A stretch of DNA of 64,000 nucleotides, taken from contig NC_057747.1 of NCBI RefSeq assembly GCF_004010195.1, positions 9,093,070 through 9,157,069 on the forward strand. The letters run 5' to 3'. This document shows, in pieces, positions 5,021 through 64,000 of the stretch. Both the position numbers and the translations under genes were made by a program. Positions within the stretch are counted from its first letter, which is position 1; each line of letters begins with the position of its first letter. Source of the DNA: Chiloscyllium plagiosum. Its lineage: Eukaryota. The notes below the pieces were generated by a model that made no database searches, was not told the origin of the DNA, and saw only the letters and a program-made list of their open reading frames with translations.

Positions 5021-7111
5021 GCTCTTACATATATCTCAGCTTGAAAGAAGTATTCAAACTTTGCAGCTCCATCTCTTCAGTTTATCTGGGCAATTTTGTT
5101 TGCTTGACTTTTCTTCACATCCTCAAATTCCTCATGAGAGTTCTGTGAATGTCAGAAGCCAATTTTTCTTTGCATCTTTGTCTTTTATAATGCATTTGGA
5201 ATGACAAAGTCACTGGAATGGCTATCCACAGGGGCAGTCCCATAATTCTCATTATTATGAAGGAGGAGGTGCACAGACAGAAGCATGGACCTTGAGATAC
5301 AATTGCAGGAGACCTCAACAAACTCACTGCTAATTCCTGGAAATGTTTCCTGGACCAGACATTTGCAATGTGACATTTGAGGTGTGAGAAAGCATCAGGA
5401 AGAATTTATTAAATAAATCAAATTGTGAAAATGCATCATTTACCTGTGTTTCATTGAAATCTTTCACACCAACGCAATAAATTGTAGCTCCATAACTTCT
5501 GGCCCTATCAGCCTATGCAAAGAAAAGACAAGTTTGTCAATTTTTTAATGATTGAAAACAAATTGGAGATTTAATTTCTTTTCTATTGCTTATGGATACT
5601 TACTTCCCGTTGTGCAAGATCATACAAACGATCAATTAATTCCCCATCTGTCAATGCAATGATGACACTAGCAGCTCGAAACCCTGTAATTGCAAATCAG
5701 CATCAGTATTTTTCCAGCAAAAGACATTTCAATATCATGAAATTATGCATAATTTAACTTACCATCCAGTACTTCTATAGCATTTAACATCTTGAAGTAA
5801 CTCAGCATCAAACCAAGTCAAGGAAAAGTAGCACTTACAGATTTTTGAATGCATGTCCATTGACTAATAACCCTCCAAGGAGAGGAAAGAAAATATATCT
5901 TTTTGTTAGCAGGATAACTTTGATGTGGTAATATACTAAGTTCTACTAAGTGAACTAATTACTCAACCAATACAATCATTTCCTTGAAAAATTAAATATG
6001 GTAGAGACAAAATGGCTAGCTTGAGCTTCATAAATTACAAGGAATTAGCTTGAAAGAATTCTAAATGAACATATACATCCAAAGTTCTGCAAGTTAAAGC
6101 AGTCTTTTTGTCTTCAGTCTGCTTTCTTTCAAAAGTATACTTTGCTCAATGCTGTTCATTCTTGTGCATTAGAAGACCCCTGCATAGGAATTGATTTTCC
6201 ATCCTCATTATGAATGAAATGCACCTAAAAATATACGACCTACATATAGGGCTGGTGTCAACATTATGATCAAACCAGAGGCCTATCTCTCCTCTTGTCT
6301 GCCTGATGTCCTCCAGTCTCAGAATCCCAAACTTATTCCCGCTCTCTTGGCTTGCCATTCTTAATGCCCCATCCCCCACTCAACTGCACAAGGATGTATA
6401 AAATGCTTTCTAGCTTTGCACCACCATCCTTACCTCTGAGTCATTTTAACCAGAGAAAGGTTGTTGGTTTTCATTTTAAAAATGAACTTAAATATTGTCT
6501 GGTATTAGCTTTTTGCTTTCCATTGTAGTAATGTGCAGTGGCAGCACCGTGTATAAAAGTCAACGCACATTAAAATCAAATTTCCCGCTCTCTGGGGAGC
6601 TGCATTGATTCATGGGTGATTTTCCAAAAAGCAGCAAATCTGATCTTAATCCATAATGACTGCTTGATGCGCTGCCACTGCTGCACACTAAAATAATCGT
6701 GTAGCGAAAGACTGGGAATTAAATTATTTTAATTAGTCTTTTCAGTGTGGATCAGAACATTTTCTTAAATATTGCAACTTTTGATTAAGGCTGATAAAAC
6801 AAAGTGAGATCATATTTTAAACAAAACCAAACATCAGAAAGAGGAGAGCAACAGACTGCAATTAAGAAAGAAACAAGCAAGAGATTGTCAGGCATTTATA
6901 ACTTACATCTTCATTTTCTATACTGCTCATGAAACTCAGTCTCTGTTTGACTATGGGCACAGGTCAGGTATATTTCATTTGACAACTGTCATTTCCAATG
7001 GTGTAGTTAGAGCTTGTGTTACAAGTTAACAAATATCACACTGATGCTGCAGATGAACACAGAGATCCAAGCACAGTACTACAAGACAGGATGGACATTT
7101 TCTCTTCTCTG

Positions 7112-7301
7112 GGAGAAAGTGAAGACTGCAGATGCTGGAGATCAGAGCTGAAAAATGTGTTGCTGGAAAAGCGCAGCAGGTCAAGCAGCATCCAAGGAGC
7201 AGGCGAATCCTGAAGAAGGGCTTATGCCTGAAACGTCGATTCTCCTGCTCCTTGGATGCTGCCTGACCTGCTGCGCTTTTCCAGCAACACATTTTTCAGC
7301 T
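7112..7301 (+). mobile_element. Penelope-derived short element: ~65-bp inverted repeat with hammerhead ribozyme core in the loop, 16-bp TSD
   Basis: Arms 7145-7209 and 7238-7302. Core 7210-7237 is CTGAAGA AGGGC TTAT GCCT GAAAC GTC. TSD cattttctcttctctg at 7096-7111 and 7302-7317. Confidence 0.85.
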
Positions 7302-9133
7302 CATTTTCTCTTCTCTGCCAACCTTCCAATGGGCTATTTCAAGCTAATGGGACACACTATTGACTACATAGCCAACCAGTACAAATCTGTACCCAGGGGC
7401 AAACACTGGCAGCACCAGTTACAGTAGCACACCTAATGTATTTATGAGGAGTTTTGATTTGAACATGAAATAAGTTTATAAATTTCCCATTGCAAATACA
7501 ATAGTGCAATTGCTTGTCACTATTACCAGATTAACAGCCCCAATTAGGGAATTCATATTCTGTGGTCAACCTGGCTGACCTCGTTACAATAACTACTAAT
7601 GTACATAGTTCCCAATCTCAGTATTGTGCAGGTAAAAGTGCTAAACAGTTGTTTTGCAAAGACAAGAAAAATATTGGAGTGAGCTCCAAATGAGCTATTG
7701 CTATGGCTTCTGCCAACAGCACGGTACTGCCAGAGGTCGGGAATAGATCATTTGTTTGTTTCACTGCTGCATCTGAAGATGTACCATGGAGAAAAATCTT
7801 AATGTTGGGTGTGTTTACAGTAAAAACATGAAAAATAACTTGTTTGAGGAGAAAGTATTGAATTAACTTGTGATAGAGGAGCTATAGAAAATAAGTTTTT
7901 AAAAAATACTTTCTAGCTAAAGTTTAAATTATCCTCGGAGTGAGAAATTATGCTGACCATTTGGCGTTATTTTATGTAATGCACAGAATATTAGAATCAT
8001 ACAAAAGATTGGTTGATCTCATACATCTCACATACATTGCAACATATTAAAATCCACAAATTGAAAATATTAACAACGGTACTAACTTGCATTGATCTTC
8101 AGCAGTAGGGAAATAAGATTAGCACTGAAATATAGAAGGAAATATTTGAAGAGGTGACCAAAGAGGTAAAAGAGGTATGTTGCATGAATGGTCTAAAAGA
8201 ATGAGAGTAGGTTGGGCTGTTAAAACTGGTCCAATTAGGGAGCTCTAGCTGACAGATAAGAACAGAACAGAAGACGTTTAGAAGATAAATTATAAAGCGT
8301 TGGGTCTAGGGAACTAAAGTCCCAATAATGTTGCTGCTGATTATTTACAATAACGGCTGAAAGGAAGGAAGTTGCAATGGAGGCATGAATCAGAGAACTA
8401 CAAAATATGGAGGTGGGTGAGAAGGCAGAGTGGTGTTTGGATGGTAGCTGTAGGAGTTATAGAAGTTACAGTGTAGTAGGGAATACTACAAAGTGATTTA
8501 ACCATAAGGATTTGGATCACACACGGCCACCAGGAAACAAGGTTAACACCCACCAGAATTGTTTTCATGGTGAATCTGTTCAGTTGCCTGTAACAAGTTT
8601 AAATGAAACACAGTTACTAAATAACATTGATATGAACCTTGGTATAGTGACCAAATCAACACATTTTTAAAAGAAATAAAATTACAAACAGAACTTATAT
8701 TGTAAATTATACCTTTCTGAAGCCCTCGTGCATGAATGTATCTCCTCCAGGCACAACATTCCGAAGGGTTTGAAGACCTTCTCGTATAGCTTCTCTTTAA
8801 TTAAAACATAATTACTCAAGTTCAAAAAATAGTACGAAGCAGTGAGTTGGCTAATTTCAGTGAATTATTTCAAGACCAATAATGAAGATCTCTCATTTAA
8901 GAAAAATTGGGCTTTGTATAGCAAACAAATACACAATTTGACCTAAATTTGAGCGAGCTGAGACAAGACTTACCGATTTGCTGTTAAACTCATTAAGGTT
9001 GTACTTCTTGTGGAGAACACAATAAAAGACATTCTTAACTGAGGACTGAAAACAGTTGATTATTAGTGATATTCCTTTAAGTAAACTAACTATTTGATTG
9101 GACAGTAAATATGTTAAATAAACTCGATGATAC

Positions 9134-13129: not shown

Positions 13130-13805
13130 TCTGCCATTCTAAATACTGTGACTGCAATGGCAGGTCAAAGGCTTGGAATTCTGTGGCAAATATTTCACCT
13201 CCTGACTCTCAAGGGCTGCCCACTGTCGACACTGCACAAGTCAGAAGTGTTATGGAAAATTCCACACTTGCCTGAATGAGTGCAGTTCCAACCACATCTA
13301 AGATAATCAACACCATCCAGGCAAAGCAGTCTGTTTGACTGGCACCACATTCACAACTTTCACCATTCCCTCCCTGCACTACCCATAGTGACAATAGTGT
13401 GTGTTATTGATAAAATGCATGGCATCATCTCAACCAGGCTCTTTCAATAGCAACTTCAAAAGTTGCAAGCTCTATCACCTAGAAGGACAGAGACAGTGGT
13501 GAGAAGTTCCTCTTCAAGCCAGACACAATTGAAACTTGTTTCCTGATGAAGGGCTCTTGCCTGAAATGTTGATTCTCCTGCTCCTCAGATGCTGCCTAAC
13601 TGCTGTGCTTTTCCAGCATCACACTCTCGACCCTCACAATTGAAACTTAGAAATACATTGCTATTCCTTTGTTGTTGCTGTGTCAAAATCCTCAAACTGC
13701 CTTCCTAACAATGCTGTGGATATAGCTGAACCATCTGCAAAACATTGATACAAATGGGTGACTGACTCAAGGACAATTAAAGATGGGCTATAAATGTTGA
13801 CATAA
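13130..13805 (+). mobile_element. Degraded 3' end of a second non-LTR LINE family (Daphne/L2-like)
   Basis: Degenerate post-RT segment (caagtcagaagtgttatggaaaattccacacttgcctg..., resembling QVRSVMEYSPLAW) plus a tail shared with copies at ~42040-42200, ~51140-51950 and (minus) ~37825-38180. The clade assignment is tentative. Confidence 0.55.
13538..13634 (+). mobile_element. Short hammerhead-bearing Penelope-derived insertion
   Basis: CTGATGA AGGGC TCTT GCCT GAAAT GTT at 13543-13570. TSD cacaattgaaactt at 13524-13537 and 13635-13648. Confidence 0.75.
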
Positions 13806-14331
13806 CCAACATGAAAGTACAAAAAAAAGTAAGACCCATGAAATAATAGACTTGAAAATAACAAATTTGACAAAAGGATTAAACTTACCTGTTGAAGCAT
13901 GCACAAAATGTGTTTAAGACTTTTCACTATGACAGGGCTGATATCTCTCGAAAAAATCAAATGGTTGTTTCATATTCTTCAGAGTCATCCTTCGCCACTG
14001 AGGTGAAAATAGCCACAAACTTTAGCGACCAATGGTGCTTACAATTTCCTGTTTATAGCAGTCTGAGCATACACATTGAGGAGAACCTTTCCCTTTTTGT
14101 AGCAGCATGATTGAAAGTGTGTATTGTGCAAATTGAAGTGCAAAAACATAGAAGTTACCCCAATAATTGTTAGTTTGTCTTCCTGAAGAATTAAAAGCAT
14201 GGTAAAACATGAAATTTGGAACCTTTCTGAATAAAATTTTGATAAGAAAATTAACAGGGGCAAAACAGAGAAGACAAAAGAATCTAATTAACGTGACTTG
14301 GAGGTGCCGATGTGGACAAAGTTAAAAATCA

Positions 14332-14444
14332 ACTAGGAGAAAGTGAGGACTGCAGATGCTGGAGATCAGAGCTTAAAAATGTGTTGCTGAAAAAGCGCAG
14401 CAGGTCAGGCAGCATCAAAGGAACAGGAGAATCGATGTTTCGGG
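14332..14444 (-). mobile_element. Same family, truncated in the ribozyme, nested in a related element (~14310-14570)
   Basis: TSD agttaaaaatca at 14320-14331 and 14445-14456. Confidence 0.7.
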
Positions 14445-14611
14445 AGTTAAAAATCACGCAATACAAGGTTAGAGTCCAACAGTTTGGATATACTAGCTTT
14501 TGGAGTGCCGCTCCGATGAACCACTTGATGAAGGAGCTAGTGCTTCCAAATAAACCTGTTGGACTAAAAACTGATTAAGGTATTGTCATACCAACAGGAG
14601 TCTCGCCTGCC

Positions 14612-15120
14612 AGTCATAGAGATGTACAGCATAGAGAAAACATGCTCAGTCCAACTTGTTCATGCCAACTATATATTCTAAATTAATCTAGTCTCATTTG
14701 CCAGCATTTGGCTCATATTCTTCTTACCCCTTCCTATTCATGTAACCATCCAGGTGCCTACACCATTTCCTCAGGCAGCTCATTTCATTCATGCACTGCC
14801 CTCTGTGTGAAATGGTTGTCTCTTAGGTCCCTTTTAAGTCTTTTCCCTCTCACCTTAAACATATACTGTCTAGCTTTGGACTCCTTTAAGCTAGGAAAAA
14901 AGACCTTGGCTATTCACCAAATCATGCTCCTCATGATTTAATAAATCTCTACAAGGTCATTCCTCAGCCTCTGACATTCCAGAGGAAATATCTCTAGTCT
15001 ATTCAGCCTTTCCCTGTAGCTCAAACCCTGCAACCTTGGCAACATCTTTGTAAATTTTTTCTGCACTCTTTCAAGTTTAACAACGTTGTTCCAAAAATAG
15101 GTAGACCAGAACTGAACTCA
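14612..15120 (-). mobile_element. CR1 LINE 3' fragment (older copy, tandem to the long copy)
   Basis: Same 3' sequence as the start of the long copy at 15128, more diverged. Confidence 0.8.
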
Positions 15121-15127
15121 GAGCATC

Positions 15128-18100
15128 ACAGAGTAATGGAGATGTCCAGCACAGAAACAGTCCCTTCGGTCTAACTCATCCATGCTGACCAGATATCCCA
15201 ACCCAATCTAGTCCCACCTGCCAGCACCTGGCCCATATCCCTCCAAACCCTTCCTATTCATTTACACATCCAGATGCCTTTTAAATGTTGCAATTGTACT
15301 AGCCTACACCAGATCCTCTGGCAGCTCATTCCATACACACACCACCCTCTGAGTGAAAAAGTTGCCTCTTAGGTCCCTTTTATTTTTTCCCCTCTCACCC
15401 TAAACCTATGCCCTCCAGTTCTGGACTCACCCACCACAGCGAAAAGACTTTGTCTGTTTATCCTATCCATGCCTCTCTTGATTTTATAAACCTCTATAAG
15501 GTCACCCCCTCAGCCTCCGACACTCCAGGGAAAACAGCCACAGCCTATCCCTCTCCCTGACTGGAGCTCAAATCCTCCAACCCTGGCAACATTCCTGTAA
15601 ATCTTTTCTGAACCCTTTCAAGTTTCACAACATCTTTTCCATAGGAAAGAGACCAGATTTGCATGCAATATTCCAACAGTGGCCTAACCAATGTCCTGTA
15701 GAGCCACACCATGACCTCCCAACTCCTGTACTCAATACTCTGACCAATAAAGGAAAGCATACCAAACACCTTCTTCACTATCCTATCAACCTGCGACTCC
15801 ACTTTCAAGGAGCTATGAACCTGCACTCCAAGATCTGTTTGTTTAGCAACATTCTCTAGGACCTTACCATTAAATGTATAAGTCCTGCTAAGATTTGCTT
15901 TCCCAAAATGCAACACCTCACATTTATCTAAATTAAACTCCATCTGCTACTTCTCAGTCCACTGGCCCATCTGGTCAAGATCCTATAGTAATCTGAGGTA
16001 ACCTTCTTCGCTGTCCACTACACCTCCAATTTTGGTGTCATCAGCAAACTTACTAACCAAACCTCTTATGCTCACATCCAAATCATTTACATAAATGATG
16101 AAAAATAGTGGACCCAGCACCGATCCTTTTGGCACTTCACTGGTCACAGGCCTCCAGTCTGAAAAACAACCCTCCACCACCACCCTCTGACTTCTACCTT
16201 TGAGCCAGTTTTGTATCCAAATGGCTAGTTCTCCCTGTATTCCATGAGATTGAACCTTGCTCACTAGTCTCCCATGGGGAACCTTGTCAAACGCCTTACT
16301 GAAGTCCATATAGATCACATCTACCACTCTGCCCTCATCAATCCTCTTTGTTACTTCTTCAAAAAACCCAATCAAGTTTGTGAGACATGATTTCCCACGC
16401 ATAAAGCCATGTTGACTATCCCTAATCAGTCCTTGCCTTTCCAAATACATGTACATCCTGTCCCTCAACATTCCCTCCAACAACTTGCCCATCACTGATG
16501 TCAGGCTCACTGGTCTATAGTTCCCTGGCTTGTCCTTACCACCCATTTTAAACAGTGGCACCACGTTAGCCAACCTCCAGTCTTCCAGCACCTCATCTGT
16601 GACTATCGATGATACAAATATCTCAGTAAGAGGCACAGCAGTCACTTCCCTAGCTTCCCACAGAGTTCTAGGATACACCTTAACCGATCCTGGGGATTTA
16701 TCCACTTTTATGCATTTTAAGACATCCAGCACTTCTTCCTCTGTAATATGGACATTTTTCAAGATGTCACAATCTATTTCCCTACATTCTACATCTTCCA
16801 TGTCCTTTTCCACAGTAAAAACTGATGCAAAATACTCGTTTAGCATCTTCCCCATCTCCTGCTGCTCCACACAAAGGCTGCCTTGCTGATCTTTGATTCT
16901 CTCCCTAGTTACCCTTTTGTCCTTAGTGTATTTGTAAAAACCCTTTGGATTCTCCTTAACTCTATTTGCCAAAGCTATCACATGTCCCCTTTTTGCCATC
17001 CTGATTTCTCTCTTAAGTATACTCCTACTGCCTTTATACTCTTCTAAGGATTCACTTGATCTAACCTGACAAACACTTCCTTCTTTTTCTTAACCAAACC
17101 CTCAATTTCTTTAGTCATCCAGCATTCCCTATAACTACCAGCCTTTCCTTTCATCCTAACAGGAATATACTGTCTCTGGAGGCTTCTGAAGGCTTCCTAT
17201 TTTCCAGCCATCCCTTTACCTGTGAACATCTACCTCCAATCAGCTTTCGAAAGTTCTTGCCTAATACTGTTGAAATTGACCTTCCTCCAATGTAGAACTT
17301 CAACTTTTAGACCTGATCTATCCTTTTCTAACATTATTTTAAATCTAATAGAATTATGGTCACTGGCCCCAAAGTGCTCCCCCACTGACACCTCAGTCAC
17401 CTGCCCTGCCTTATTTCCCAAGAGTAGGTCAAGTTTTGCACCTTCTCTAGTAGGTACATCCACATACTGAATCAGAAAATTGTCTTGTACACACTTAACA
17501 AATTCTTCTCCATCTAAACCTTTAACACTATGGCAGTCCCAGTCTATGTTTAGAGAGTTAAAGTCCCCTACCATAACCATCCTATTATTCTTAGATAACT
17601 GAGATCTCCTTACAAATTTGTTTCTCAATTTCCCTCTGACTGTTAGGGGGTCTATAATAGAATCCCAATAAGGTGATCATCCCTTTCTTATTTCTTATTT
17701 CCACCCAAATAACTTCCCTGGATGTATTACTGGGAATATCCTCCCTAAGTAAGTTGTAATGCTATCCCTTACCAAAAACGCCACTCCCCCTCCTCTCTTG
17801 CCTCCCTTTCTGTCCTTCCTGTAGCATTTGTATCCTGGAACATTAAGCTGCCAGTCCTGTCCATCCCTGAGCCACATTTCTGTAATTGCTGTGATACCCC
17901 AGTCCCATGTTCCTAACCATGCCCTGAGTTCATCTGCCTTCCCTGTTAGGCTCCTTGCATTGAAATAAATGCAGTTTAATTTATCAGTCCTACCTTGTTT
18001 TCTGCATTGTTCCTGCCTGCCCTGACTGTTTGACTCACGTTTGTTCTCAACTGTACCAGTTTCAATTTTAAATCTTTTCTCACTATCTCCCTGGGTCTCC

Positions 18101-26040: not shown

Positions 26041-26049
26041 GAAAGCCTA

Positions 26050-47565: not shown

Positions 47566-47654
47566 CTTTATTAACAAGGGGAAAGAAAAATGTCAGGGCG
47601 ACACGGCAACCTCAGGCTGATAGCCGACTTGGTAACAAAACAATATTCCAGTAC

Positions 47655-47797
47655 CTGCTACGTGTGGAACTGTCCACAGTTCGGAGATGGTGTCAGTGGG
47701 TCTGTTGTAAACGCTATCGAGGAGAACAGGCCTTCCATCGTCAAAAAAGTAGGAACACAGGAGCGGGATGGCAGACGTAGGTCCTCCAATGTTGTAC
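47655..47797 (-). CDS. RBP3: RBP3 exon 3 (143 bp)
   Basis: gggtag|(R)[47 protein letters not shown](G)|gtactg. Phases are consistent with exons 2 and 4. Confidence 0.95.
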
Positions 47798-48859: not shown

Positions 48860-49128
48860 GATTAGATTCCCTACAGTGTGGAAACAGGCCTTTCAGCCCA
48901 CGACCCTCCGAAGAGTAACTCACCCAGACCCATTTCCCACTGACTAATGTACCTAACACTATGGGCAATTTAGCATGGCCAATTCACCTGGCCTGCACAT
49001 TTTTGAACTGTAGGAGGAAACCGGAGCACCCAGAGGGAATCTCCACACAGACAGTCACCCGCGGCTGGAATTGAACCTCGGACCCTGGTGCTATGAGGCA
49101 ATGGTGCTAACCACTGAGCCACCCCAAC
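48860..49128 (-). mobile_element. tRNA-derived V-SINE (HE1-like)
   Basis: Reverse complement of the same SINE with an internal deletion. Confidence 0.85.
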
Positions 49129-50436: not shown

Positions 50437-50472
50437 ATTCCTGAAGAAGGGCCTGTGCCCGAAACGTCGAAT
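50437..50472 (+). ncRNA. Minimal type I hammerhead ribozyme motif (intact core) in a short Penelope-derived insertion (50435-50530)
   Basis: ATTC CTGAAGA A GGGC CTGT GCCC GAAAC GTC GAAT: helix I ATTC/GAAT, helix II GGGC/GCCC, cleavage triplet GUC. TSD aatcacct at 50427-50434 and 50531-50538. Confidence 0.7.
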
Positions 50473-51237
50473 CTCCTGTTCCCTGGATGCTGCCTGACCT
50501 GCTGTGCTGTTCCAGCAATAAAGTTTCAACAATCACCTACAAGACACAAGTTAGGAGCACAATGGAGTACTTGCACCCTCTTGATGCTATTTTCCACTTT
50601 CTATACCAGTTATCTTTTGGAATCTCTGAATGGAATTGCCAACTTCATACAAAATAATGAACAGTTTTGTGAGCAATCGCTTTACAGTAGACAGCAACAA
50701 ACCAAGTCTATTTTATACAAAAACAGAAATTGCTGGAGAAACTCAGTAGGTCTGGCAGCACCTGCTGAGAAAGCAGAGTTAACATTTTGAGATTGATGCT
50801 CCTTCTTCAGAACTATTTTCGACTGAGTTCTTACAGCTGGCAGATGTGCCTTCCATTTAATCAGCCTGGGCCAGATTTAAATTCAAATAAAGGCAAAATA
50901 CCATTGATGCTGGAAATCTAAAGCAAACACAGAGAATGTTGGAGAGCATTTGGCAACAATTTGTGGAGAAAAACAAAGGAATTAATGTTTAGCCACACTG
51001 GACTCAAAATACTAACTCTGTTTCTCTCTGCACAGATGCTGTCAGACCTGATGAGTTTCTCAAACATTCTCTGTGCTTGTTCTAGATTTGAACTCAGACT
51101 TGCAGAAAGAAAGGAACAATATCTAATTCACAGGGTAAGTCTAACTCAGGACTAAGCAATTTTCTTGACTGGCAACACAACCACGCATATTCACTCCCTC
51201 CACCACCAATGTTCAGTTGCAGCAGTGTGTACCAGTG

Positions 51238-51551
51238 TGGGCAGCACAGTAGCACAGTGGTTAGCGTTGTTGCCGCACAGCGCCAGAGACCCGGGTTCAA
51301 TTTCCGCCTCAGGCAACTGTCTGTGTGGAGTTTGCATATTCTCCCCGTGTCTGCGTGCGTTTCCTCTGGTTTCCTCCCACAGTCCAAAGATGTGCAGGTT
51401 AGATGAATTGGCCATGCTAAATTGTCCGTAGTGTTAAGTGAAGGGGTAAACGTAGGGGAATGGGTCTGGGTGGGTTGCTCTTCGGAGGGTTGGTGTGGAC
51501 TTGTTGGGCCGAAGGGCCTGTTTCCACACTGTAAGTAATCTAATCTAATCT
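51238..51551 (+). mobile_element. tRNA-derived V-SINE (HE1-like), full length
   Basis: A box (tagcacagtggtt), B box (gggttcaatttcc), V-domain ctgtgtggagtttgcatattctccccgtgtctgcg, CR1-like tail and (aatct)n end. Nested in an older LINE tail. Confidence 0.88.
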
Positions 51552-52197
51552 ACAAGATGCACTGCTGAAATTCACCAAGCCTGCTTAAGCAGCATCTTCC
51601 AACTGATAACCACTACCATCTAGACAGACAATGGCAGAAGGGCATGTGAATACCATCTCCAAACCATACACCATCCTGACCTGGCATTATATCGCCATTC
51701 CTTCATAATTAGATCAGAGTCCTGGAACTCCCTCTCTAATAGGGTTATGATTAACCCTCCATAAAAGGTGGGGAGCAGAAGGAAAGATTAGGGAGAGGGT
51801 AGTGCATGAGGGAGATAACCTCGCACCACAGAAAGGGAGTGGAGACAATGCAGAGTAAGGATTAAGAGGTTAAAGAAGGTAGCTCTCAAGTGCAAATAGA
51901 AATGGGCAACAAATAGCAGCCCTGCCAGAGAGGCACACAACCTTCGAATGAATGAGAAAAATAACGTTTAGAAATATTTTGAATCTCATTGCTCAGCTGT
52001 TACAATGGATTGGTTTTTGCATTCAGTGGTAAAGCAATAGTGAAAACTGCTGATTCTGAAGATTTAGTGATTTCTGGTGTCCGGGGAAAAGGAACTGGAT
52101 TTCCCTTCTCCTGTTTGGCAATTTAATACTAGTATCAAGTCAAGAGTATTACCAGGTGACCACATCCATTGATGTCACCAAGTAGAGTGGTACGAGG

Positions 52198-52493
52198 AGT
52201 CATAGTTTGAAGATATTAGGAGAAAGGTATAAAGGAGACGTCAGAGGTAGGTTCTTTATACAGAGAGTTGTGAATGCATGGAGTGCATTGCCAGTTGTGA
52301 TGGTGGAAATAGGGTCATTGAGGACATTTAAGTGACTGCTGGACATGCACATGGATAGCAGTGAGTTGAGGGGTGCGAAGGTTAAGTTATTATATTTTAT
52401 ATTAGGATTAAACCTCGGCACAACAGCATGGACCAAAGGGCCTATTCTGTGCTGTACTTTTCTATTTCTATTTCTATGTCTATTTCTATGTCT
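52198..52493 (+). mobile_element. CR1-type LINE 3' end with short tandem tail
   Basis: ttctttatacagagagttgtgaatgcatgg (FFxQRVVNAW) followed by a repeated tctatt/tctatg tail. Confidence 0.75.
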
Positions 52494-53514
52494 AGAGTAA
52501 ACAAGCAACCAAACTGAAGTATATTCACCAACAGCAAACAAGGAAGTTAAAATAGAGAATCTGCCCACTTTTAATTTACTTCTTGTAGCATAATAATTGA
52601 TTATGATCGGATCAAGATGGAAAGTAAAATATCACAAGCACTTGAAAACAAATCAAAAAAGAACTGGCATGTTTTTATGATACAGAAATTCCACATTTTT
52701 TGCAGATAAAATTAGATTTTCAGAGCCTCTGAGGGTTCTTTAATCATGAACTGAGCGAACTGTTAAAAATGCAATTACATTGCATTGAGCAAGATGCAAC
52801 TTTTAAAGGAACAAAAACAGGAATTGCTGGAGAAACTCAGCAAGTTGGCAGCCTGTGTGGAGAAAAAGCAGAGGTAACATTTCAAGTCCAGTGATCCTTC
52901 TTCGGAACCCATAACCTTTAAAGCGTTTTCAGACCAGAGATAACAGCATAAGAGTGGAAGTTATCATACATTATCTAATTTCTTAGTAACGTTTGGAGAT
53001 GCCACAAAGGTGAAATCCTGCAGATCGTGGAAATCCAAACAAGTACAGAAAGTGCTGTAGAAACTCAGCAGGTCTGGCAGTATCTGTGGAGAAAGAAATA
53101 TTGGAACTGAAGTGATATGGAAAGTTGTTGGGTTTATAATGTGGGAAAAGGTGAGGAGCAGAAGGAAAAGTCAGGGAGAGGTTGGTACATGAGGGAAATT
53201 ACCTTGCACCATAGAAAGGGAGTGGAGACAATGCAGAGTAAAGATTAAGAGCAGAATTTTGGTCAGGTTGTTGATGAATTCTAGCCAGGCTGTTCAAATA
53301 GAAGCTAAGAGACATGGACTATCATTGTGCACAGAGTTTATTGACTATATGAGTTCAGAACCTTTCTCCCCAAGTCCCAACTATTTCTTCTGTACATATC
53401 TAGATATCAATTCATGGCTATCACATGATTTCATTCTAACCTAAATTACCTTTTACATTACAGTTCTGAAAACAAGATCATTAAACTGAGAGGAGTGGGT
53501 GATGTGAGTGACAG

Positions 53515-54100
53515 GGAAGGAAATATTCCTGTATCCCTGCTCACAATGCAGTCCCTTTTTTTGAAGAGACTGGGTAGATTGGGTAACCACTTTATGAAAC
53601 ATCTCCACTCTGTTTGCAAATGTGACCATAACCTTTGAGTTGCTTGTCATTTCAATACAAGATCCGCTGCAGTATTCCAGGAAAGCCCAATGCATGTTGG
53701 AGAAATTAGTATCTCACTTTTTGGGTACTTTACAGCCTTTTTAGACTTAACACTGAATTCAACTACAAAGCCTATCCACTATTTGGATTTCACTCCCCCC
53801 CGCTACATCCTCCAGTTTTGTTTTTTGGCAGGATGGATCTATAACCTACTGAATGGTTATGCTTTATCCCTTGTCCACAGCCAATGCCATTTTGTTTTGT
53901 GACATCTTTAATGGCTAATCTTCTTGGCTTTCTAATCTTTCTTTCAATTCCATTTACTACTCTATACCTTTACCCTCAGCGTAAAACCTATCACTTTTCC
54001 TTATTACTTCAGTTTTGAAGAAGTGATATTGGACTGAAAAGATTAACTGTTTCTTTCTCTCTGGATGCTGCCAGACCTGCTGAAGTTTTTCTGCACTCCA
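53515..54100 (+). mobile_element. Degraded Penelope-like element 3' end (GIY-YIG relic, 3' UTR, degenerate hammerhead terminal repeat)
   Basis: tgctcacaatgc (CSQC), gagactgggtagattgggtaaccactttatgaaacatctccactctgtt (resembling ET..RLG.RF.EHL.SV), gttgcttgtcatttcaat (VACHFN), gggtactttacagcct (GTLQP), then ttttgaagaag...actgaaaagattaac. Confidence 0.6.
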
Positions 54101-55396
54101 CTCTGCTCTTGGCTCAACAACACACTTTCTGGAGGAGTACAGAGTCAGTGACTGAAATCACTATGCCTTCCTACAGCTTTGGTATCATTTCAAGCATTAA
54201 ATGTGGGTCATCAATTATCGTATTTTTGTCATGCTTTATTTCATGAGTTCTATTGAAAGCTGAATGTCAGAGCATCTTGAAACATTCCTGTCATTTATGA
54301 GCCCAATACCTGTCAGTCATAGTCAGTGTTTTCCTTTTTGCCATTATGAATGGTGTAATTGTCTGTGTGCTCAAGTAGCTATAACATTAAAAGATATCAT
54401 TTGTTAGCAGTGCGGCTAAGTGGGAAAATATTTGTGCTATATAATGGATGATCAAGGCAAGTTACAGATCAGCCACAAATTTGTTGCTTACATCTACATA
54501 TCATTTAAGTATGAGCTGGGAACTTGTAAATGTGAACAGCACATATCCCTTGGTTAAAATATGAATTATAGTGTGTTTCTGAAGGAACAAGTAAAATGGT
54601 AAGTACTGACTCAGCACCATTTCCTATATTTGATTTTCTTTCTTTATTAGGAGTTCTTTTACATTCTGCCTATAAGATGAATCCAATATTGAATTAAATT
54701 TCATACAGAATTTGATTACAATGTAATTAAATAAAGCCTGGTTTTGGAGTTAGGCCTCACTTTGTCACTGAAATAAGTTGAGATTCTCTTTAGTCGCTGA
54801 CTTCACTTCGGTAAACTTTATGTCTTTTTTATCCTCACCTCTGAGTTACATCACAAACGGTGGTTTGAATGTGATGCACAAAGCAGGTTTACACAAACCC
54901 TAAATTTTTAATGTGAATGCACAGCAAAATTGCAAAGTTTAAATGCTGTCTAATCTTCAGTGTGTCACTTAACAGCCAATATTCTGGAATACTCCAAAGG
55001 GGATTGCGTAGCTTCCAATCTGCCCTTTATGATTTCTGGCCCAAAAGCAAAACTCAAATATTTGACTTTAACCCAGCTGGTTATGGTCAAAAAACAAAAA
55101 TAATGGTAAGTAGAAGAAATACATTATAAGAAACTACAACGACGTTGAAAAACACATTGAAAAAACTGCGGATGCTAGAACTCAGAAATAAAAACAGAAA
55201 TTGCTGTAAAAACTCAAGCAGGTCTGGAAGCATCTGTGGAGAGAAATCAGAGTTAATGTTTCAGGCCCCGTGACTCTTCTTCAGAATACTGGTACTGATA
55301 TAATGGTGCCACACTGGAACAAGTTGATATGTTTGCCTCTCTACAGCAAACGATAATAGTGGATGGAAGGTGCGAAGTAAGAGTTATCAGAAGGAT

Positions 55397-56131
55397 TGTT
55401 ATGAAGGTGTAGATGTGTACCGTACCTTTAAGAGAGAGTGAAAGCTGGCAAGGACTGACTGAAAGCATAGAGTATGCTGAACAATTAAAAAATGTAACAT
55501 TTGGTTGTGAAACAAACAGCTGGAGCTACTTTGCCATGGTACACAACAAATTCAAATTTGACCAATCAATTTAGATTATGCCCCAAGATACCAAAATCCA
55601 ATTGAATCTGAATTTTAATGTTTTGTATGACATCAAAACAATGAAATGGTCTGATGTTTTGGGGTATATAAAATTCGGGTATTTTGAACAGTTAGCCAGA
55701 ATGGCAAAAAGCACCTATGAAGATATGACCTGCGGAGCTTCTCTCAGAAAGGTATCATTTCATATGAAATTTGAAAAGCAGAAGATCGAAGAAAAGGTCA
55801 GGAAAGTACAGACAAAGATACCAAGTCAACAGCTGGCTGGTTTTGAAATTTGTTTTTTTTTGTAAACTTAATCGGGCAGGGGAGCGTTTATTGGATCACT
55901 ATATTGTTGTAGAGTCGGAGGTAGATAAATTGATCAAAGGAGGATTACTGTGTAGATAATTGTTTAACGTTCCTCTGTTTTTTGGAGTTAAAGAATAAAT
56001 TGTTAAAGTTTTTCTTTAAATAGAAGGATTTTTGTAGTTCTTGGTCACTTATATTTTAACAGATTATGAGGCGAGGTGAGCTTTTCTGTATGCATGGTTT
56101 AGATTAGCAGAAGGGTCTACCTTTCATAACA
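55397..56131 (+). mobile_element. Probable solo LTR (735 bp) in RBP3 intron 2
   Basis: Termini TGTTATGAA...TTCATAACA, with CCAAT (55562), TATATAAA (55665) and AATAAA (55994) in LTR order. The flanks aggat/gggac are only an imperfect TSD. Confidence 0.65.
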
Positions 56132-57029
56132 GGGACAAGATAGCCAGAGTAATTTTGTGAAGGTGAGAGGTGTGCTAACATCAAGAAAACTCAAGCCTGT
56201 AACAAGGAAAACCTCATAAGGTGCTCCATTCTATCCACTTCCCTGTATACCTGGACAATGGAAAATAAAGCTTCAACATTTCAAAGAAATCTTAACATCT
56301 ATTAAAAAATGTTATACTCAGACTGTAAAATAAATAAAGAAGTGCTGGAAATTGCAGAGGTAAAAAGAACTTTAAAAAGTGATATCCTGAAAAGATATTT
56401 GGGTCCTTTGGTGAGAGCTGAAAAGATCTCCTCTAGAGGGCAGCGTGGAGGGCAGCTGAAAGAGGCTTTGATCTAGGCGTGGATGGAGAATGTCATAGAG
56501 TGGTTGTAGAGCAGTGACAGTGGACGTGTGAGGATGTGGCACAACAGATGACTGTGACAAACTGTGACAGCAGGTCTCCAGGCAGGAGTGGCTACAATCT
56601 CTGGAGGGCTGTAGTGTGCATGCCTTTAATTAGTGCCACTAGGGGAGCCTGTATTTATCTGAGAGGTGGGTAGGGGATATCACAAAATCATGGAGTAATA
56701 TGCCACAGAGAGAGCACATTCTGACCATGTTGTCTGTGCCAGATCGTGGAAAGATCCCTCAAATTAGTACCAATGCTAATTCAACCTGGTTGGCTTGGGG
56801 TAAAGCCAGGTAGCAAGATGTCTTTGGTAGAGCAGATATGGCAGCAAGAGCTTTGATGGGTTTTGCAGTGTATTTGTTTTTTTGGATTATGCTTGGCACT
56901 TGATGTATCACGTCACAGAAGGGATTTGAACAAGGGGTCAGATTTTAAGTTCAGATTTTTTATTTCATGCTAAAATAAGGAGCAAGTTTATTACCGCAGA
57001 CCAAACCTGTGAATGGTTTGCTAAACTCT

Positions 57030-57266
57030 AAAAAGGACCTGAGGGGCAACTTTTTCACACAGAGGATGGCGCGTGAATGGAATGAGCTGCCAGAGGAAGT
57101 AGTGGAGGCTGGTACAATTACAACATTTAAAAGGCATCTGGATAGGAAGGGTTTAGAGGGATATGAGCTAAGTACTGGCAAATGGGACTAGATTAATTTA
57201 GGATATCTAGTTGGCATGGACGAGTTGGACCAAAGGGTCAGTTTCTGTGATGAACGACTCTACAAC
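57030..57266 (+). mobile_element. CR1 LINE 3' fragment
   Basis: KKDLRGNFFTQRMAREWNELPEEVVEAGTITTFKRHLD plus tail. Confidence 0.85.
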
Positions 57267-57273
57267 TAGTCAA

Positions 57274-57578
57274 GGAGCGGCATGGTGGCTCAGTGGTTAG
57301 CACTGCTGCCTCACAGCACCAGGGTCCCAGGTTCGATTTCAACCTTGGACGACTATCTCTGTTGAGTTTGCACATTCTCCCCGTGTCTGTGTGGGTTTCC
57401 TCCCACAGTCCAAAGATGTGCAGGCCAGGTGAATTGGCCATGCTAAATTGCCCATAGTGTTAGGCGCATTAGTCAGAGGGAAATGGGTCTGGGTGGGTTA
57501 CTGTTCGGAGGGTCAGTGTGGACTAGTTGGGCTGAAGGGCCAGTCTCCACACTGTAGGGAAGCTAATCTAATCTAATC
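57274..57578 (+). mobile_element. tRNA-derived V-SINE (HE1-like), full length
   Basis: tggctcagtggttagc...ggttcgatttc, V-domain and (aatct)n end. Confidence 0.88.
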
Positions 57579-57738
57579 AAGTGCTTAGCTGACTCTAAGA
57601 CAATGATAATGAGATGGTACCAAGCTGCAGAAAACCAGTAGTTCTGCACAACGATAGCATCTCTCAAGTAGTTCAAGGCAGTCAGACCACTGTGGCTCAG
57701 TGATGTTACCAGCCAGTCTCTCACACAATGCACATTAC

Positions 57739-57929
57739 CTAAGATCCACAATAAGTGCAGTAGTGTTTGCAATCTTATTCCAGACATGGTGCACCATGAG
57801 ATCTGACACCTGGCTGATGTGCTCCAGGTCACTGAACATGTCGAATCGGAGGTAGCCGACAGTGTTATCAAACACCTTTGTTTGGAAAGAAAATTTGATG
57901 AGGTCCTCAAACATCTCGGGGGGAGGAAT
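57739..57929 (-). CDS. RBP3: RBP3 exon 2 (191 bp)
   Basis: ttgccag|[63 protein letters not shown](R)|gtaatg. Confidence 0.95.
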
Positions 57930-58209
57930 CTGGCAAAGAGCAGAGTCACAATTAATACAAAATCCATTACTTTATTTTCTTCAATCACAGCATGTTTTAT
58001 TTCAGGATCTTATGCTGCTCAAAAAAGGGGTCTTGTGGTGCAGTGATAGTGTTCCTACCTGTAGACTAGAACATCTGTGTTGAAATTCCACCCTTCCCCA
58101 GAGGTTTGTGGCAACAGGATAATTAAACATTGCCTTTTTATGGGGGTCCTGTAGAGCAGTGGGAGTGTTGCTATCTCTAGATACGAAGGTTAGAGATTCA
58201 AGTCACCAT

Positions 58210-58372
58210 AGAATCATCATAGAATCCCTACAGTGTGGAAATAGGCCCAACAAGTCCACACAGACTCTCCGAAGAGTCCAACCCCATTCTCCAACCCTAT
58301 TAATTACATTTACCCATAACTAACATATCCCTGAACACTATGGACAATTTAGCATGGCGAATTTACCCAGCC
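58210..58372 (-). mobile_element. V-SINE 3' fragment in RBP3 intron 1
   Basis: acaatttagcatggc...ccctacagtgtggaa, the reverse complement of the SINE tail. Confidence 0.7.
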
Positions 58373-58445
58373 CTATCCCTACCTGCCCTATCAACATTAA
58401 AGTAGGATAACCGAGAACAGTTCCGAATTGTAGAGGTGAACCTAC

Positions 58446-61445
58446 CGGCATTGGCACCACTCCGGGAATGTGGTCCTTTCTGTTCTCCGGGATGTGCGCC
58501 ACCCTGAGGTGTTTGTCGCCGGAGAGCTGGTGAAGGTGCGCGGACAGTTTCAGAGCCAGCTCGACCTCAGAGTTGATGCCGCTGTACTGGTCCTGGCTGA
58601 GGAGGTGGGTGAGGTGCTCAGACACCGATGCCCCGCCTTCAGCTGAGGCGTAGTTGGCAGCCACCAGCTCCCCAGCCGTGCGGACAATCCCGGGGATTTT
58701 GGCACGGAGTCTGACAATGCCGAGGGCTACCTGCAGGGCTTCGTTGGCTTGGACGGGGACATGAGGCTCAGCCCCGGAGACACTCCAAACCTTGCCGGAG
58801 ACGCTGCTGAGTACCACCTGGTTGGGGATAGCCATGTAGAGGTCACTGTGTGCCATCCTGTAGGTGCCAATTGACAAGGCCCCGCCAATGGTTGGCTCCC
58901 CAATGACTGTCGCCCTCTTCAAATCCATCATGGCCCTGGTGAATGTCTCCGCTGCTGAGCCTGTGATGTGGCTGGTTAAGATGTAGATGTCCTTCTCGGG
59001 GGAATACCTTTGCCCCAAGACTTTGGGCATGGTCCATATCTGCGTACGGGTGGAGGAGGGCTGGTCGAACACTGTGTAGAGGTGATGCAGAGGCTGGGGC
59101 GCGAAGAAGTAAGAACACAGAATGGGGATGGCAGTGGAATAGCCGCCAACGTTGTACCTCATGTCAATGACCAGGCTCTCAGTGTCTACCAGCTTGTTCC
59201 ACACTTGCTCCAACAACTGAGGCCCAATGACCCTGATGGTGTCGGCCCCTGCCATGAGGTCAAAGCGCAGGTAGCCCACATTGCCAGACAGCACTTCCAC
59301 CTTGAACAGGGCACGGAGGATGCCACCCAGTTCTTCCGGCGACGGGATGCTCTCGGGTGCTTCCTCCGGGGGCTCGGGTGCCGACATGCTGCAGAACACT
59401 TGGAGCCGGTGATCGGCCGCTGCCTCCTTCAGATCACGGGTCAACTGCGAGGCCAGCGACTCATTGTCCACCACTGAGCGGTACCACCCTGCCAGCCACT
59501 TGGCGTGGAGCACAGAGCTGACCTGGGCTGCTACCTCTGGCATGGCATAGTGGGTATTGAGCAGGTTGGCCGCCTCCTCGACCAGCTCAAAGAGGTTGGC
59601 GTGGAAGGTCATCACCTCCTTGGTCTTCTCAAGAGCCTCCTCTGCTAACACAATGGCATCGGGCACCACACCACCACCCAGCCAATACTCGCCATTGTTA
59701 TCCAAGAAGTTGAGGAACGGGATGGTGATGACGAGGTTGGTTTCTCCAATTGGGAAGGACCGGGAGTGGTGCAGGGTCCCAGATGTGATCTCTCCAATCA
59801 CAGTGGCCCGTTTGAGGGACTGCATCAAGTAGGCAAACTCTTCAGCAGCAGAGGCAGTGCGGTGGCTGGTCAACACGTAGACACCCCTCTCCGAGCCATA
59901 GAGGCTCCCCTTCGGGGCTGGGAGTGTCGAGAACTCTTGGCTGGTGTTACTCAGCCGGTTATACACTGTATAGAAGAGGACGGGGGGGCCCTGTTCTTGG
60001 AAAGGGGACAGCAGCAGGGAAATGGCATCCGAAGGACCACCCGTGTTGAAGCGAAGGTCAACTATCATGGCACTGGTGTCCTTCAGGGGTACCCACACCT
60101 TGTCCTCCAGGTGCAGGCCGAGTAGAGGCATCAGGGCACCGCCTGGGAACTGGTCGAAACGCAGGTAACCAATGTTGCCTGGCAGGATGTCCACCCGGAA
60201 CATGGAGCCCAGTAGGTGTAAGAGGGAGCTGGCATCGCTCGCTAGGTCCACCGAAGGGCTAGGCGCCAGGGCTCGGGGTGGCACTGCACTCACCCTGATG
60301 GTCAACCTTGGGTCCTCACAGATGGCCTGCAGCTCACAGTTGAGCTTGGCTGCCAGGTCTTGCTCAGAAATCACTGCTGAGGCGGTCAGTTTGGAAATTC
60401 GGCGCACGAGGGAGGGGACGTGGTCCACAAAGGTGTAGTAGCTGCGCAGCAGATCGGATATCCTGGCAATCACACTGGGCACTGCCTTCCTGATGGCTAG
60501 GATTGAGGTGGCTTTCTCCAGTGCCCTATCAGCACTGACCAGCACCAATGGGAAAACCCCATTCACCTCCCAACTTTGGCCAGTGATGGGGCTGATGGAT
60601 CTTGAGAGGGGGACAGTGATGAAGAAATCTGAGGTGCCAATGCGGAACTTCCGGACATTGAGTGAGCCGCCCGCAGTCCTCTCGCCCACCAGAAGAGCCC
60701 GGTCCAAGTGCTTCAGAATGTAAGCCACATCCTCTGGCACCCCTCGGGTGTTGCTGCTGACCAGCACCAACAGGTCCTTGTCCTGGCTATACCGCTCCCC
60801 CAGGACACTGGGCAGTGTCCAGAGCTCCATGGTGGAATTGGAGGGCCGGTTGTAGACAGAGTCGATGTGGATTGGATTGCTAGCCTCACAGAAGTAGGAG
60901 ATGAGAAAGGGGACCCCAGAGATATTTCCACTTTCGCTGTATCTCAGGTCCAGGATGAGGGCGTCGGTGCTCACAATGTGGTCCCAAATGCTCTCCACCA
61001 AAACAGGGCCAAGCTCTTTGACCATCTCCGCCCCGATGATGTGGTCAATCCGCAAGTAGCCCACGTTGTTGTCCAAGATCTCAAACCTGACGGAGCTCTG
61101 CACCAGCTGGAGACGCATCTCGGGGCCGAGGGGAGGGAGGGGCACTGGGTCCTGGATGGAGGTGCCGGGCTCGTAGGAGATTCGCAACCGAGGGTCATTC
61201 AAAGCCCCCTGGACCCCCGCCGTCAACACCGCCGCCAGCGTGTGCGGCTCGCTCACATGTAGGATCTCCTCGCTCTGGTTGGCCTGCCGGATGGCCTCCT
61301 TCATACCTGCCAGGTTTTCCGGGAAGCAGTAATTTTCCAGCAAGACTTCAGCCATGTCCAACATCGTTGTGGATTGGAACATCTTAGCACTGGGCACCCA
61401 GCTCACAAGTATAACCATCAACCAAAGTCTTGACATTCCTGCCAT
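58446..61445 (-). CDS. RBP3: RBP3 / interphotoreceptor retinoid-binding protein, exon 1 (signal peptide, modules 1-3, start of module 4)
   Basis: 3000-nt open exon containing LLENYCFPENL, three GYLR(I/F)D...D(L/M)R S41-like modules and ...HIPGVVPMP|gtagg (phase 0). Confidence 0.97.
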
Positions 61446-61569
61446 GCTTCTTAATGAGCTGTTTCTCCCTACAAAACCAAAACATAAACACCCTGGTCTA
61501 TCGGTAATGGAGACTCAACGTTACCTTCCTTGCTGTCACTCTGAAATGAAAGGCAGGCAGCAAGGCAGT

Positions 61570-61635: not shown

Positions 61636-61964
61636 TAGGTGACCTGCCTAAGCAAAGCACTGTCTATAAATAATAAAACAAATATTCAAAATATAAAACA
61701 GAAAAGCTGCAGGATGCTGAAGATCTGAAACAGAAATTGCCGGAGAAACTCAGCAACTCTGGCAGCACTGTGGACAGAGAAACAGAGTTAACCTTCTGGG
61801 TCCAGTGACCCCTTTTCAAGGATCTCTTCCTCTCTCCACAATTGTTGCCAGACCTGCACTTCCTGTTTTTGTTTTAGATTTCCTGCTTTTGTTTTTTTTC
61901 TGGACAATCTGTATTGGGGTTGCTGACTGACCAAATTTATGAGTTAGGGGCTTAATTATTTAGG

Positions 61965-62210: not shown

Positions 62211-63046
62211 TTGACATGAAATTCTCTTCAGCATTGGTGAATATTGATGCAAGTCCAGTGTGCACATTAGGGATCAATACATAACTGTTCACTTGGGGCC
62301 TTAGTTAACGACAGTGTAAAATGCACGAGTCTCCCATACAATACTGTTTTCACCTCGTGACCTCTCTTCAGCCTCTGTCCGCGTCATCCACGCAGATCCC
62401 AAATGTTCCCCAACGGTATTAGGTAAATGAAATCTGGCGTGACTCTAATCCTGAGCAAATAGGTGATTAACTTTTTAACACGGCCCAGCAACATATAGCT
62501 GTGTCTTCCTATCAGCTTCAGCCAATTGGAGGCGTTTGTGACACAACACCGCTGGCGCTCAAGCTATTGACCCCTTTAGCCCGGGTCAGTGTCACCACAG
62601 GGAGACACTTTGAGACTGAGCTCCGTTTGTAAACATTTCCTAACCCGTTCACACCTCTGGAGCAGGTTGGGACTTGAACTAGGCTCAGAGGTGATGACAC
62701 TACCACTGCACCACAACAGCCCTCCCAATTATTGTTCTATACGAAGCTTTCAACCGAAAAACATTAATCGACTATTGAGAGTCAATTGTTGGCATGACGC
62801 TGAGTAGGAATTCAGGCAAAATAATGGTTCTAAATGTACTTCAAAATTTGTTTTTTTTTAAAGAAAAGATTGCTTCTAGTTTTATTTCTTTTCATTGATT
62901 AGACGAGTCTACATTTAAAAACGGCTCCCGGAATGTGGGAGGTGATTGCAACAGGATTGAGATTGCAAACTAATTCATTCCCTCCCTCAGGAACTTGGAA
63001 ACGGATTTGGTGAGACTTAGTCCAAACAGGGGCAGGGTTCAGTTTA

Positions 63047-63174
63047 GGAGAAAGTGAGGACTGCAGATGCTGGAGATCAGAGCTGAAAAATGTGTTGCTG
63101 GAAAAGGGCAGCAGGTCAGGCAGCATCCAAGGAGCAGGAGAATCGACGTTTCGGGCATGAGCCCTACTTCAGGA
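63047..63174 (-). mobile_element. Short hammerhead-bearing Penelope-derived insertion
   Basis: Minus-strand CTGAAGT AGGGC TCAT GCCC GAAAC GTC (63145-63172). TSD agggttcagttta at 63034-63046 and 63175-63187. Confidence 0.78.
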
Positions 63175-64000
63175 AGGGTTCAGTTTAATCCATCACAATG
63201 TATTCTGTTCAGGCAGAGAACACTGGAGAAACTCAGCAGGTCTGGCAGCAGTTGTGGAGAGAGAAACAGAGTTAACATTTCGACTCCGGTATAAGAACCC
63301 GTTTGATTCAGAAATACAGCTGAATTTTGATTTCATTTGCGTTTGGGAAGAGTTGGTCCTGGGGGATATATTTTTTTAAAAATTAGACGTTATGTTTTTC
63401 AAAGTAGTTTTAAAAGTATAAATCGTTACATTCTGGGAACTGGTTAAAGTTTCGAACTTAGTGCAGAAGGGGGAAGATTCCAAAATCAACGAAGTTTGGG
63501 TTTTCTCTCAGGCAGTCGAAGGATTTACTTCGGTTTTGGTTCGAGATGGCTTCACAATCTCGACTCATGCCTCAATGTTTCTCTTGAGAGAGGGCGAGCA
63601 CGGGTCGCGGCTGACAGAGGTTGAAGGGTTTCATCAGAAAATCGCGGTCACTTTTCGAACCTTTCACTTTGTGGGAGCGTTTTAGTCGAAGTTAGAACGT
63701 AAAGGGAACCAACGGCTTACCTCCAGAGACACTAAATCTCATTTTCGGCTGTACACCTCCCCATCTCCTTCAAAGATGAAAAGCCTAATTTAAAAAAAGA
63801 TTCCTTAAAACAAAAAAAAAACTGCTCGGTATCTTTGCGCATTCAATCTGACAAGTCTGGTAAAATGCGATCCTCAGCTAAGTGTCATTGTACAGTACTG
63901 GAGATGGTTATAAACCCCGTCTTTAAATGATCACACAGTCTCATGTGTTTTAAATAAAATGAGGTGAATGCATATATCCCGTGTGCCACCACGTTCACTT

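Follow-up and report, generated by a model that had tools for sequence, protein, structure and literature searches.

What are the short, ribozyme-bearing repeats that recur along a 64,000-nucleotide stretch of the Chiloscyllium plagiosum genome (RefSeq assembly GCF_004010195.1, contig NC_057747.1, positions 9,093,070 to 9,157,069 of the forward strand; hereafter the window)? An analysis of the letters alone, which we call the sequence-only reading, had described eight copies, six of them with the pattern of a minimal hammerhead ribozyme, and had taken them for a distinct, non-autonomous, retrozyme-like element mobilised by a Penelope-like reverse transcriptase (RT). Our data support the choice of mobiliser and not the distinct element. 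The eight repeats are almost certainly the shortest 5'-truncated 3' ends of an autonomous Penelope-like element (PLE) that encodes an RT and a GIY-YIG endonuclease, and so are the lowest rungs of its truncation ladder. It is highly probable that this identity, taken jointly with an origin of the copies by internal priming and run-off of the complementary DNA (cDNA), explains what we see.

To describe the copies we count positions from C3 of the hammerhead core (position 0), which places the predicted cut after +27; core positions carry the conventional hammerhead numbers. A 28-nt pattern, allowing up to three mismatches, matched the window six times (7210, 13543, 25103 and 50441 on the plus strand, 43183-43210 and 63145-63172 on the minus strand) and matched none of 100 shuffles. 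Self-search of the window added two copies cut inside or after the core, at 14332-14444 and 42457-42547, and the inverted arm 7112-7209, which upholds the count of eight copies with six patterns. Seven of the eight are flanked by exact direct repeats (target-site duplications, TSDs), as had been claimed. The insertion at 7112-7301, bounded by a 16-bp TSD (7096-7111 and 7302-7317), is head-to-head: a minus-strand arm (7112-7209; +28 to about +124, long tail) meets a plus-strand arm (7208-7302; -2 to +91, short end) whose core at 7210-7237 is intact, and the insertion matches the 3' end of an endonuclease-bearing copy at 97.7% identity. The other seven are solo stubs. On the plus strand, an older stub at 13538-13634 (13524-13648 with its 14-bp TSDs) begins at -3, has the short end and a core at 13543-13570 with two CpG-type changes, and is 88.5% identical to a 3' end linked to an open reading frame (ORF). 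The stub at 25095-25230, of subfamily group B, begins at -8, has the long tail and a core at 25103-25130 with G8>A, and is 94.1% identical to an ORF-linked 3' end; it alone among the eight has no exact direct flanking repeat that we could find. Further along lie a stub at 42457-42547 (42443-42561 with its 14-bp TSDs; 85.7% identity), which begins at +29, one base beyond the predicted cleavage site, and has the long tail, and a young stub at 50435-50530 (50427-50538 with its 8-bp TSDs), which begins at -6, has the short end and an intact core at 50441-50468 with a 4-bp helix I, and shows 100% identity, across 96 nt, with the 3' end of an RT-bearing copy (L057). On the minus strand, the stub at 14332-14444 (14320-14456 with its 12-bp TSDs; 92.7% identity) begins at +17 inside stem II and has the long tail. 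A second group B stub at 43083-43212 (43075-43220 with its 8-bp TSDs; core 43183-43210; 94.7% identity) and the stub at 63047-63175 (63035-63187 with its 12-bp TSDs; core 63145-63172; 93.0% identity) both begin at -3 and have the long tail. Core and stem II are intact only at 7210 and 50441. The description of the remaining patterns as single-base variants fits 25103, 43210 (G10.1>A) and 63172 (A9>T) and fails for 13543, which is two bases off. No ORF of at least 150 aa lies inside any of the eight, in agreement, at that threshold, with the claim that the copies lack ORFs.

The parent was reached by following young copies outwards. A genome search with the 50435 copy gave 40 scored copies at 98-100% identity and, at 30 fetched loci, most copies extend 5' into a common sequence of varying length. 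At two of these loci, coding frames with Pfam matches to RVT_1 (L011) and GIY-YIG (L003, 22.8 bits) lie directly upstream on the same strand. Searching the genome with the L011 protein returned 127,231 first-look candidates; at 28 of the 30 best RT loci (27 of 29 if the locus of the query is set aside) the window sequence stands on the same strand at most 1.5 kb downstream of the RT, compared with roughly 1 in 10 estimated from background density. Each of the eight window copies, in turn, finds its best match (86-100% identity) at the 3' end of a same-strand RT and/or GIY-YIG copy. The earlier choice of a Penelope-like RT as the mobiliser is upheld. The sole remnant of the parent ORF that we detected in the window itself is a minus-strand fragment of the endonuclease C-terminus and 3' untranslated region (3'UTR) at 4908-5003 (82% by blastn; 73% over 22 aa by tblastn, E 8e-5).

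A single 706-aa frame at L061 matches both RVT_1 (E 4.7e-8) and GIY-YIG (E 2.9e-4; 21.5 bits, just below the 22.6 cut-off). Its translation contains DKG, YIDD, a C-x4-C-xx-C linker and a GIY-YIG domain with CCHH; the Cys linker and CCHH are likewise visible in the translation of L068. The parent is about 3-3.5 kb long and is laid out as hammerhead, tail, a likely ATG about 160 nt past the core, an N-terminal domain without a Pfam match, a Pro-rich linker, RT, Cys linker, GIY-YIG, 3'UTR, and again hammerhead and tail. As we walked 5' along the ORF, Pro-rich tandem repeats and gaps were met, and the 5' end was reached through the tail. Two near full-length loci (L218 and L219), broken by stops, frameshifts and gaps, have a hammerhead and a tail on either side of the ORF, and L220 is a partial tandem. 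The supposed tiny element is therefore the pseudo-long terminal repeat (pLTR) end of the parent. Separately, we observed that the parent's 72-bp Pro-rich coding repeat has expanded to about 26 units at L114-L127 (G000:C15:4034396-4036248), with smaller arrays on other contigs.

This architecture is a familiar one. Endonuclease-bearing (EN+) PLEs of the Neptune and Nematis clades are described as having the same single ORF with RT and C-terminal GIY-YIG, the motifs CX2-5CxxC and CCHH, and pLTRs, and also heavy 5' truncation, partial tandems, an inverted 5' copy, a 30-40-bp tail at one end and 8-10-bp TSDs (PMC8557442, PMC3846280). The linker CX2-5CxxC is given as the mark of these two clades (Craig et al. 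2021, PMC8557442). Judged by its motifs, and with Neptune as the linker-bearing clade reported in vertebrates, the parent is probably Neptune-type, the linker being common to Nematis too.

We turned to the hammerhead itself, using column counts over 66 arms that were not selected for an intact core, together with folds. The core boxes, an extra base after A9, G10.1-C11.1 and a palindromic 15.2-16.2 are all present and helix III is missing, which confirms the earlier assignment to the minimal type I hammerheads of Penelope-like terminal repeats. The same type I core, with the extra base between 9 and 10.1, G10.1-C11.1, the palindromic 15.2-16.2 and no helix III, is described for pLTRs of PLEs including Xena, Poseidon and Neptune of fishes (Cervera and De la Pena 2014, PMC4209133); unlike the motifs shown there, stem II of the present family is short (4 bp). 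According to that paper, most minimal PLE hammerheads occur singly and are "probably related to truncated PLEs", and their activity is low even in dimeric form; in the sections consulted it names no shark among the hosts, and its supplements may list shark motifs. An Rfam scan of the window matched no hammerhead family, which is unsurprising for a minimal motif that lacks helix III. Two weak Rfam microRNA-model matches on the hairpin at 7158-7279 fell below the gathering score and were rejected, as they arise from the inverted arms.

Two details of the pairing had been misread. Helix I was thought to pair in two ways; however, the GAATC at 7205 is part of the inverted arm (7112-7209), and no compensatory change is involved. 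Every subfamily seen has ATTC as its native 5' strand, for which only the GAAT of the CTGT-loop subfamily is a full partner; 36 of the 66 arms have a T.T mismatch. Helix I is at most 4 bp and weak in folds of five native copies (z about -0.6 to -1.8). Nor does the stem II loop vary freely: instead a few subfamily loops recur (TTAT, CTGT, TTTT, TCAT, TAAT), the two TTTT-loop window copies representing a sister group with an ORF about 70% identical in protein. Within the family we found no covariation of helix I or stem II, changes being mostly CpG decay, and CpG sites are the most decayed positions. Among the outcomes that would refute it, the sequence-only reading had listed a core conserved no better than neutral across copies, and this is the outcome we found. 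We counted mismatches at 43 of 704 sites in 11 core columns (6.1%) against 82 of 1716 in 26 low-polymorphism tail columns (4.8%; Fisher p = 0.19). The core thus decays at the rate of the tail and the copies drift neutrally, which argues against function of the copies but leaves the motif of the parent untouched. The stubs were likely inactive from the moment of insertion. If the ribozyme matters at all, it would do so within the RNA of the parent, where it would likely act as a dimer by way of the ACGU palindrome or be assisted by protein.

These results bear on the possibility that the window copies represent a separate unit of 90-190 bp, SINE-like (short interspersed nuclear element) or retrozyme-like, with its own transcription and moved by a Penelope RT. 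Short copies are the majority, many share a near-identical 5' edge, and short two-hammerhead tandem units (320 and 224 bp) occur at other loci of the genome, all of which such a unit would explain. However, every window subfamily is also the 3' end of ORF-bearing copies, at up to 100% identity; the 5' ends form a ladder without one fixed end; no tRNA or other Rfam head was found; the window copies are not head-to-tail arrays; and their cores decay neutrally. We consider a separate unit very improbable, and for the window copies the evidence has largely refuted it. Metazoan non-LTR retrozymes, described in two reports (Cervera and De la Pena 2020, PMC7229834; Li et al. 2026, bioRxiv 10.64898/2026.07.22.740005, a preprint whose supplements may also list shark motifs) and recorded there from one chondrichthyan genome, share with the present copies the type I hammerhead, the lack of an ORF and the derivation from, or movement by, PLEs. 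They differ in forming repeats of 150-450 bp arranged head to tail, most of which carry canonical hammerheads, and in being expressed as circular RNA. Retrozymes have at least two head-to-tail units with a hammerhead in each, a helix I of about 6 bp and a helix III; the window copies are solo or head-to-head, and their helix I does not exceed 4 bp. Circular-RNA joints numbered 0 in the reads of RNA run X20, a poor test given a poly(A) library of which 2% was read.

The tandem units found elsewhere, with periods of 320 and 224 bp, join the tail and 5' ORF start to the 3'UTR (L144, about 1390-1840; L014; L128-L157; L134; L150). L144 contains such a two-hammerhead unit without a gap, arranged head-to-tail in the manner of a retrozyme, and the 320- and 224-bp units are possible retrozyme precursors. 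Forty identical matches to the 320-bp junction were not counted as copies: many follow an N gap and start at one and the same base, so that they may reflect repeated use, by the assembler, of a single collapsed sequence. At L158-L187 we saw many different joints that connect the 5' ORF region of the parent either back to the 3'UTR or directly to the pre-core ATTC, and L168 has a short A-rich run at the joint.

How abundant is the family? The exact core occurs 95,939 times in 3.56 Gb (47,916 + 48,023; reversed control 0), bearing out the very high copy number that had been proposed and far above the 4,000-9,000 copies given for coelacanth and Xenopus in PMC4209133. For rates we used 584 kb of contiguous DNA (567,798 non-N bases) made up of the window, its neighbouring 120 kb and, from other contigs, four blocks of 100 kb, after dropping arms below 60 bits or not reaching +39. 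This left 97 arms in 76 insertions, or 1 per 7.5 kb, the same outside the window and close to the earlier figure of about one per 8 kb; rough extrapolation gives some 4-5 x 10^5 insertions genome-wide. A further sample, C1, kept 107 of 109 rows after removal of 2 duplicates and, being selected for intact cores, was excluded from the breakpoint rates and the conservation test. TSDs of at least 8 bp (8-18 bp) flank 28 of the 76 insertions, compared with 0.75% of 400 mismatched pairs, in line with the variable-length TSDs of target-primed reverse transcription that had been claimed. The same data dispose of a miniature inverted-repeat transposable element (MITE) or other DNA-transposon derivative with terminal inverted repeats, an idea prompted by the hairpin at 7112-7301. 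Some insertions are indeed long palindromes with flanking direct repeats, but TSD length is not fixed, most copies are single arms, paired arms are unequal, and the sequence is contiguous with RT and GIY-YIG ORFs. Variable TSDs and RT linkage refute the idea, and we give it next to no chance. Our literature search turned up no description of this shark family, though it may be annotated in Repbase, Dfam or subscription journals, which lay outside that search.

The 3' ends of the arms fall into two groups about 35 nt apart, at about +80 to +100 (short) and +119 to +127 (long). Among the 76 insertions there are 21 inverted pairs, and 20 of them combine one long with one short arm, the exception abutting an N gap. 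A second sample showed the same pairing in 27 of 27, "short" there meaning that no long tail was found. Solo arms divide into 30 long and 25 short. In earlier accounts of EN+ PLEs, often just one of the two ends has the tail (Craig et al. 2021, PMC8557442; Arkhipova et al. 2013, PMC3846280). Whereas that asymmetry was stated qualitatively, the counts here make it nearly a rule (47 of 48 head-to-head insertions), in a family with most insertions reduced to the terminal 90-130 bp.

A biochemical precedent exists in PAc, a Poseidon element of Anolis, in which the PLE tail was traced to two internal RT start sites, both target strands were nicked and extended in vitro, and the protein is predicted to dimerise (Frangieh et al. 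2024, PMC11167929). The two start sites match the two tail ends here. Given the long-plus-short pairing, the nicking and extension of both strands and the predicted dimer, it is simplest to infer a separate priming site for each of the nicked strands. As described in the same paper, PAc uses an uncleaved RNA substrate and has its hammerhead at the pLTR-ORF junction; it differs from the shark parent in belonging to the Poseidon clade, in lacking the Cys linker and in having its start codon within the ribozyme, compared with the likely ATG about 160 nt downstream here.

The 5' ends are equally regular. After removal of 3 arms with N at the 5' side, 94 of the 97 arms remained. Of the 60 that reach -1, 35 stop at -1 to -9, where about 2 would be expected; the stop rate there is 0.095 per nt, about 12-40 times the 0.002-0.008 found further upstream. 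The five full-core window copies, the inverted one aside, begin at -3 to -8. Among arms at least 93% identical to a reference, 15 of 24 stop at -1 to -9, indicating that the pile-up is not an artefact of missing references. The 5' ends otherwise form a continuous truncation ladder. Tandem joints often fall on the ATTC, and joints to 1393-1394 occur in contigs of run X15. A 5' pile-up at the ribozyme edge is not among the PAc features described in the sections of PMC11167929 that were consulted.

We slightly favour run-off as the source of the pile-up: internally primed cDNA would reach the RNA 5' end just 5' of the ribozyme. The start site of Penelope lies within its pLTR (PMC2377424; PMC8557442), and here transcripts would start at about -4, at an initiator-like TCATTC. 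Only 3 of 94 breakpoints lie at +26 to +29, around the cleavage site, which fits an uncleaved RNA template as in PAc. With the same parent, the pile-up might instead arise where the RT pauses or lets go of its template, at the fold of the ribozyme or on a self-cleaved RNA. The breakpoint rate does climb within the ribozyme, from 0.009 per nt at +10 to +29 to 0.020 at 0 to +9, two window arms begin at +28 and +29, beside the predicted cleavage site, and RNA reads gave no start site. Cleavage, however, predicts ends at +28, where the 3 breakpoints contrast with the 35 at -1 to -9, past the unwound fold, and helix I is weak in the five native folds. We hold this alternative to be less likely than not.

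Several observations weigh against the preferred explanation. As many as 28 of 94 breakpoints lie within the ribozyme (0 to +29), unexplained by a single start site, and 25 of 60 core-passing arms continue into the 3'UTR, so an end at -4 is not obligatory. Pausing of the RT at RNA structure could also generate the 5' hot spot. X20 showed no pile-up of starts or ends, although, as poly(A) single-cell data of which about 2% was read (1180 reads), it is a poor test; 91% of its reads continue into unlike sequence. An extra 5' G, as expected from cap copying, was found in 37 loci against 23 with A over 60 loci, but the solo insertions gave 14 against 12, which is not significant, and at inverted joints the extra G is often supplied by the partner arm. 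Other counts gave 13 G against 6 A, and 63 against 37 among the first 100 of 10,023 genome matches, counted by eye. Finally, none of the copies examined showed a full-length ORF that was intact; the assembly has many gaps.

On the run-off account, the RT would start inside the RNA just 3' of the ribozyme and run off the RNA 5' end just 5' of it. With a start at about -4, cDNA primed at the 5' tail would be only 90-130 nt long. Joining of this cDNA to the second target end would yield a solo stub; priming of the second nicked strand at the other site, and joining of the two cDNA ends, would yield a head-to-head hairpin; and a template switch, or read-through RNA, would yield the longer copies. 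These stubs, in their hundreds of thousands, might then be integrated "strong-stop" cDNAs, with a transcript start at the hammerhead 5' edge, two fixed priming sites, one per nicked strand, and strand transfer for full-length copying as in LTR elements. We hold the chances of this fuller model to be evenly balanced, and our literature search found no strong-stop model for PLEs. If it is true, the genome is a record of an asymmetric twin-priming cycle, and an occasional jump back into the 5' region would be the origin of the two-hammerhead retrozyme units.

There is nothing unusual in the feature itself, since a description of truncated PLE ends that carry minimal hammerheads dates from 2014 and that of the tail and the inverted copies is older still. 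The scale and two counted regularities, the 5' pile-up and the long-plus-short pairing, may be useful. For the completion of the PLE cycle, this genome yields sharp, testable predictions, namely a start at about -4 and one priming site per target strand. For annotation, the stubs are best filed as PLE ends and not as SINEs, MITEs, microRNA hairpins or working ribozymes.

A second family, absent from the sequence-only reading, is represented in the window by about 13 copies that are older and decayed, several of them head-to-head. Its tail is related to that of the first, and its hammerhead, visible on the minus strand at 55258-55284, has a longer stem II. The copies lie at about 4343-4466, 20109-20180, 34754-34886, 44862-44937, 48416-48476, 49863-50022, 50724-50799, 51018-51066, 53046-53122, 54047-54095, 55181-55284, 61731-61857 and 63214-63290. 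An RBP3 (IRBP)-like gene with Pfam S41 domains occupies 47258-61514 on the minus strand (exons 58338-61514, 57738-57929 and 47258-47817), its first exon encoding 1058 aa with S41 repeats. The 50435 stub sits between its exons, antisense to the gene, and nothing we saw suggests a host role for the window copies. Exons of a PR/SET-like and C2H2 zinc-finger gene lie on the plus strand at 33082-33555 and 38967-40163; its synteny with RBP3 suggests that this gene may be ZNF488/PRDM8-like. A fragment of a long interspersed nuclear element (LINE) RT at 15115-17089, presumably CR1-like, includes a 368-aa minus-strand frame (15983-17089) and has an inverted partner at 20961-22180, 4.6-6.8 kb away and 82-94% complementary. 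Minisatellites occur at 25562-26120 (42-bp period) and 36507-36942 (18-bp period).

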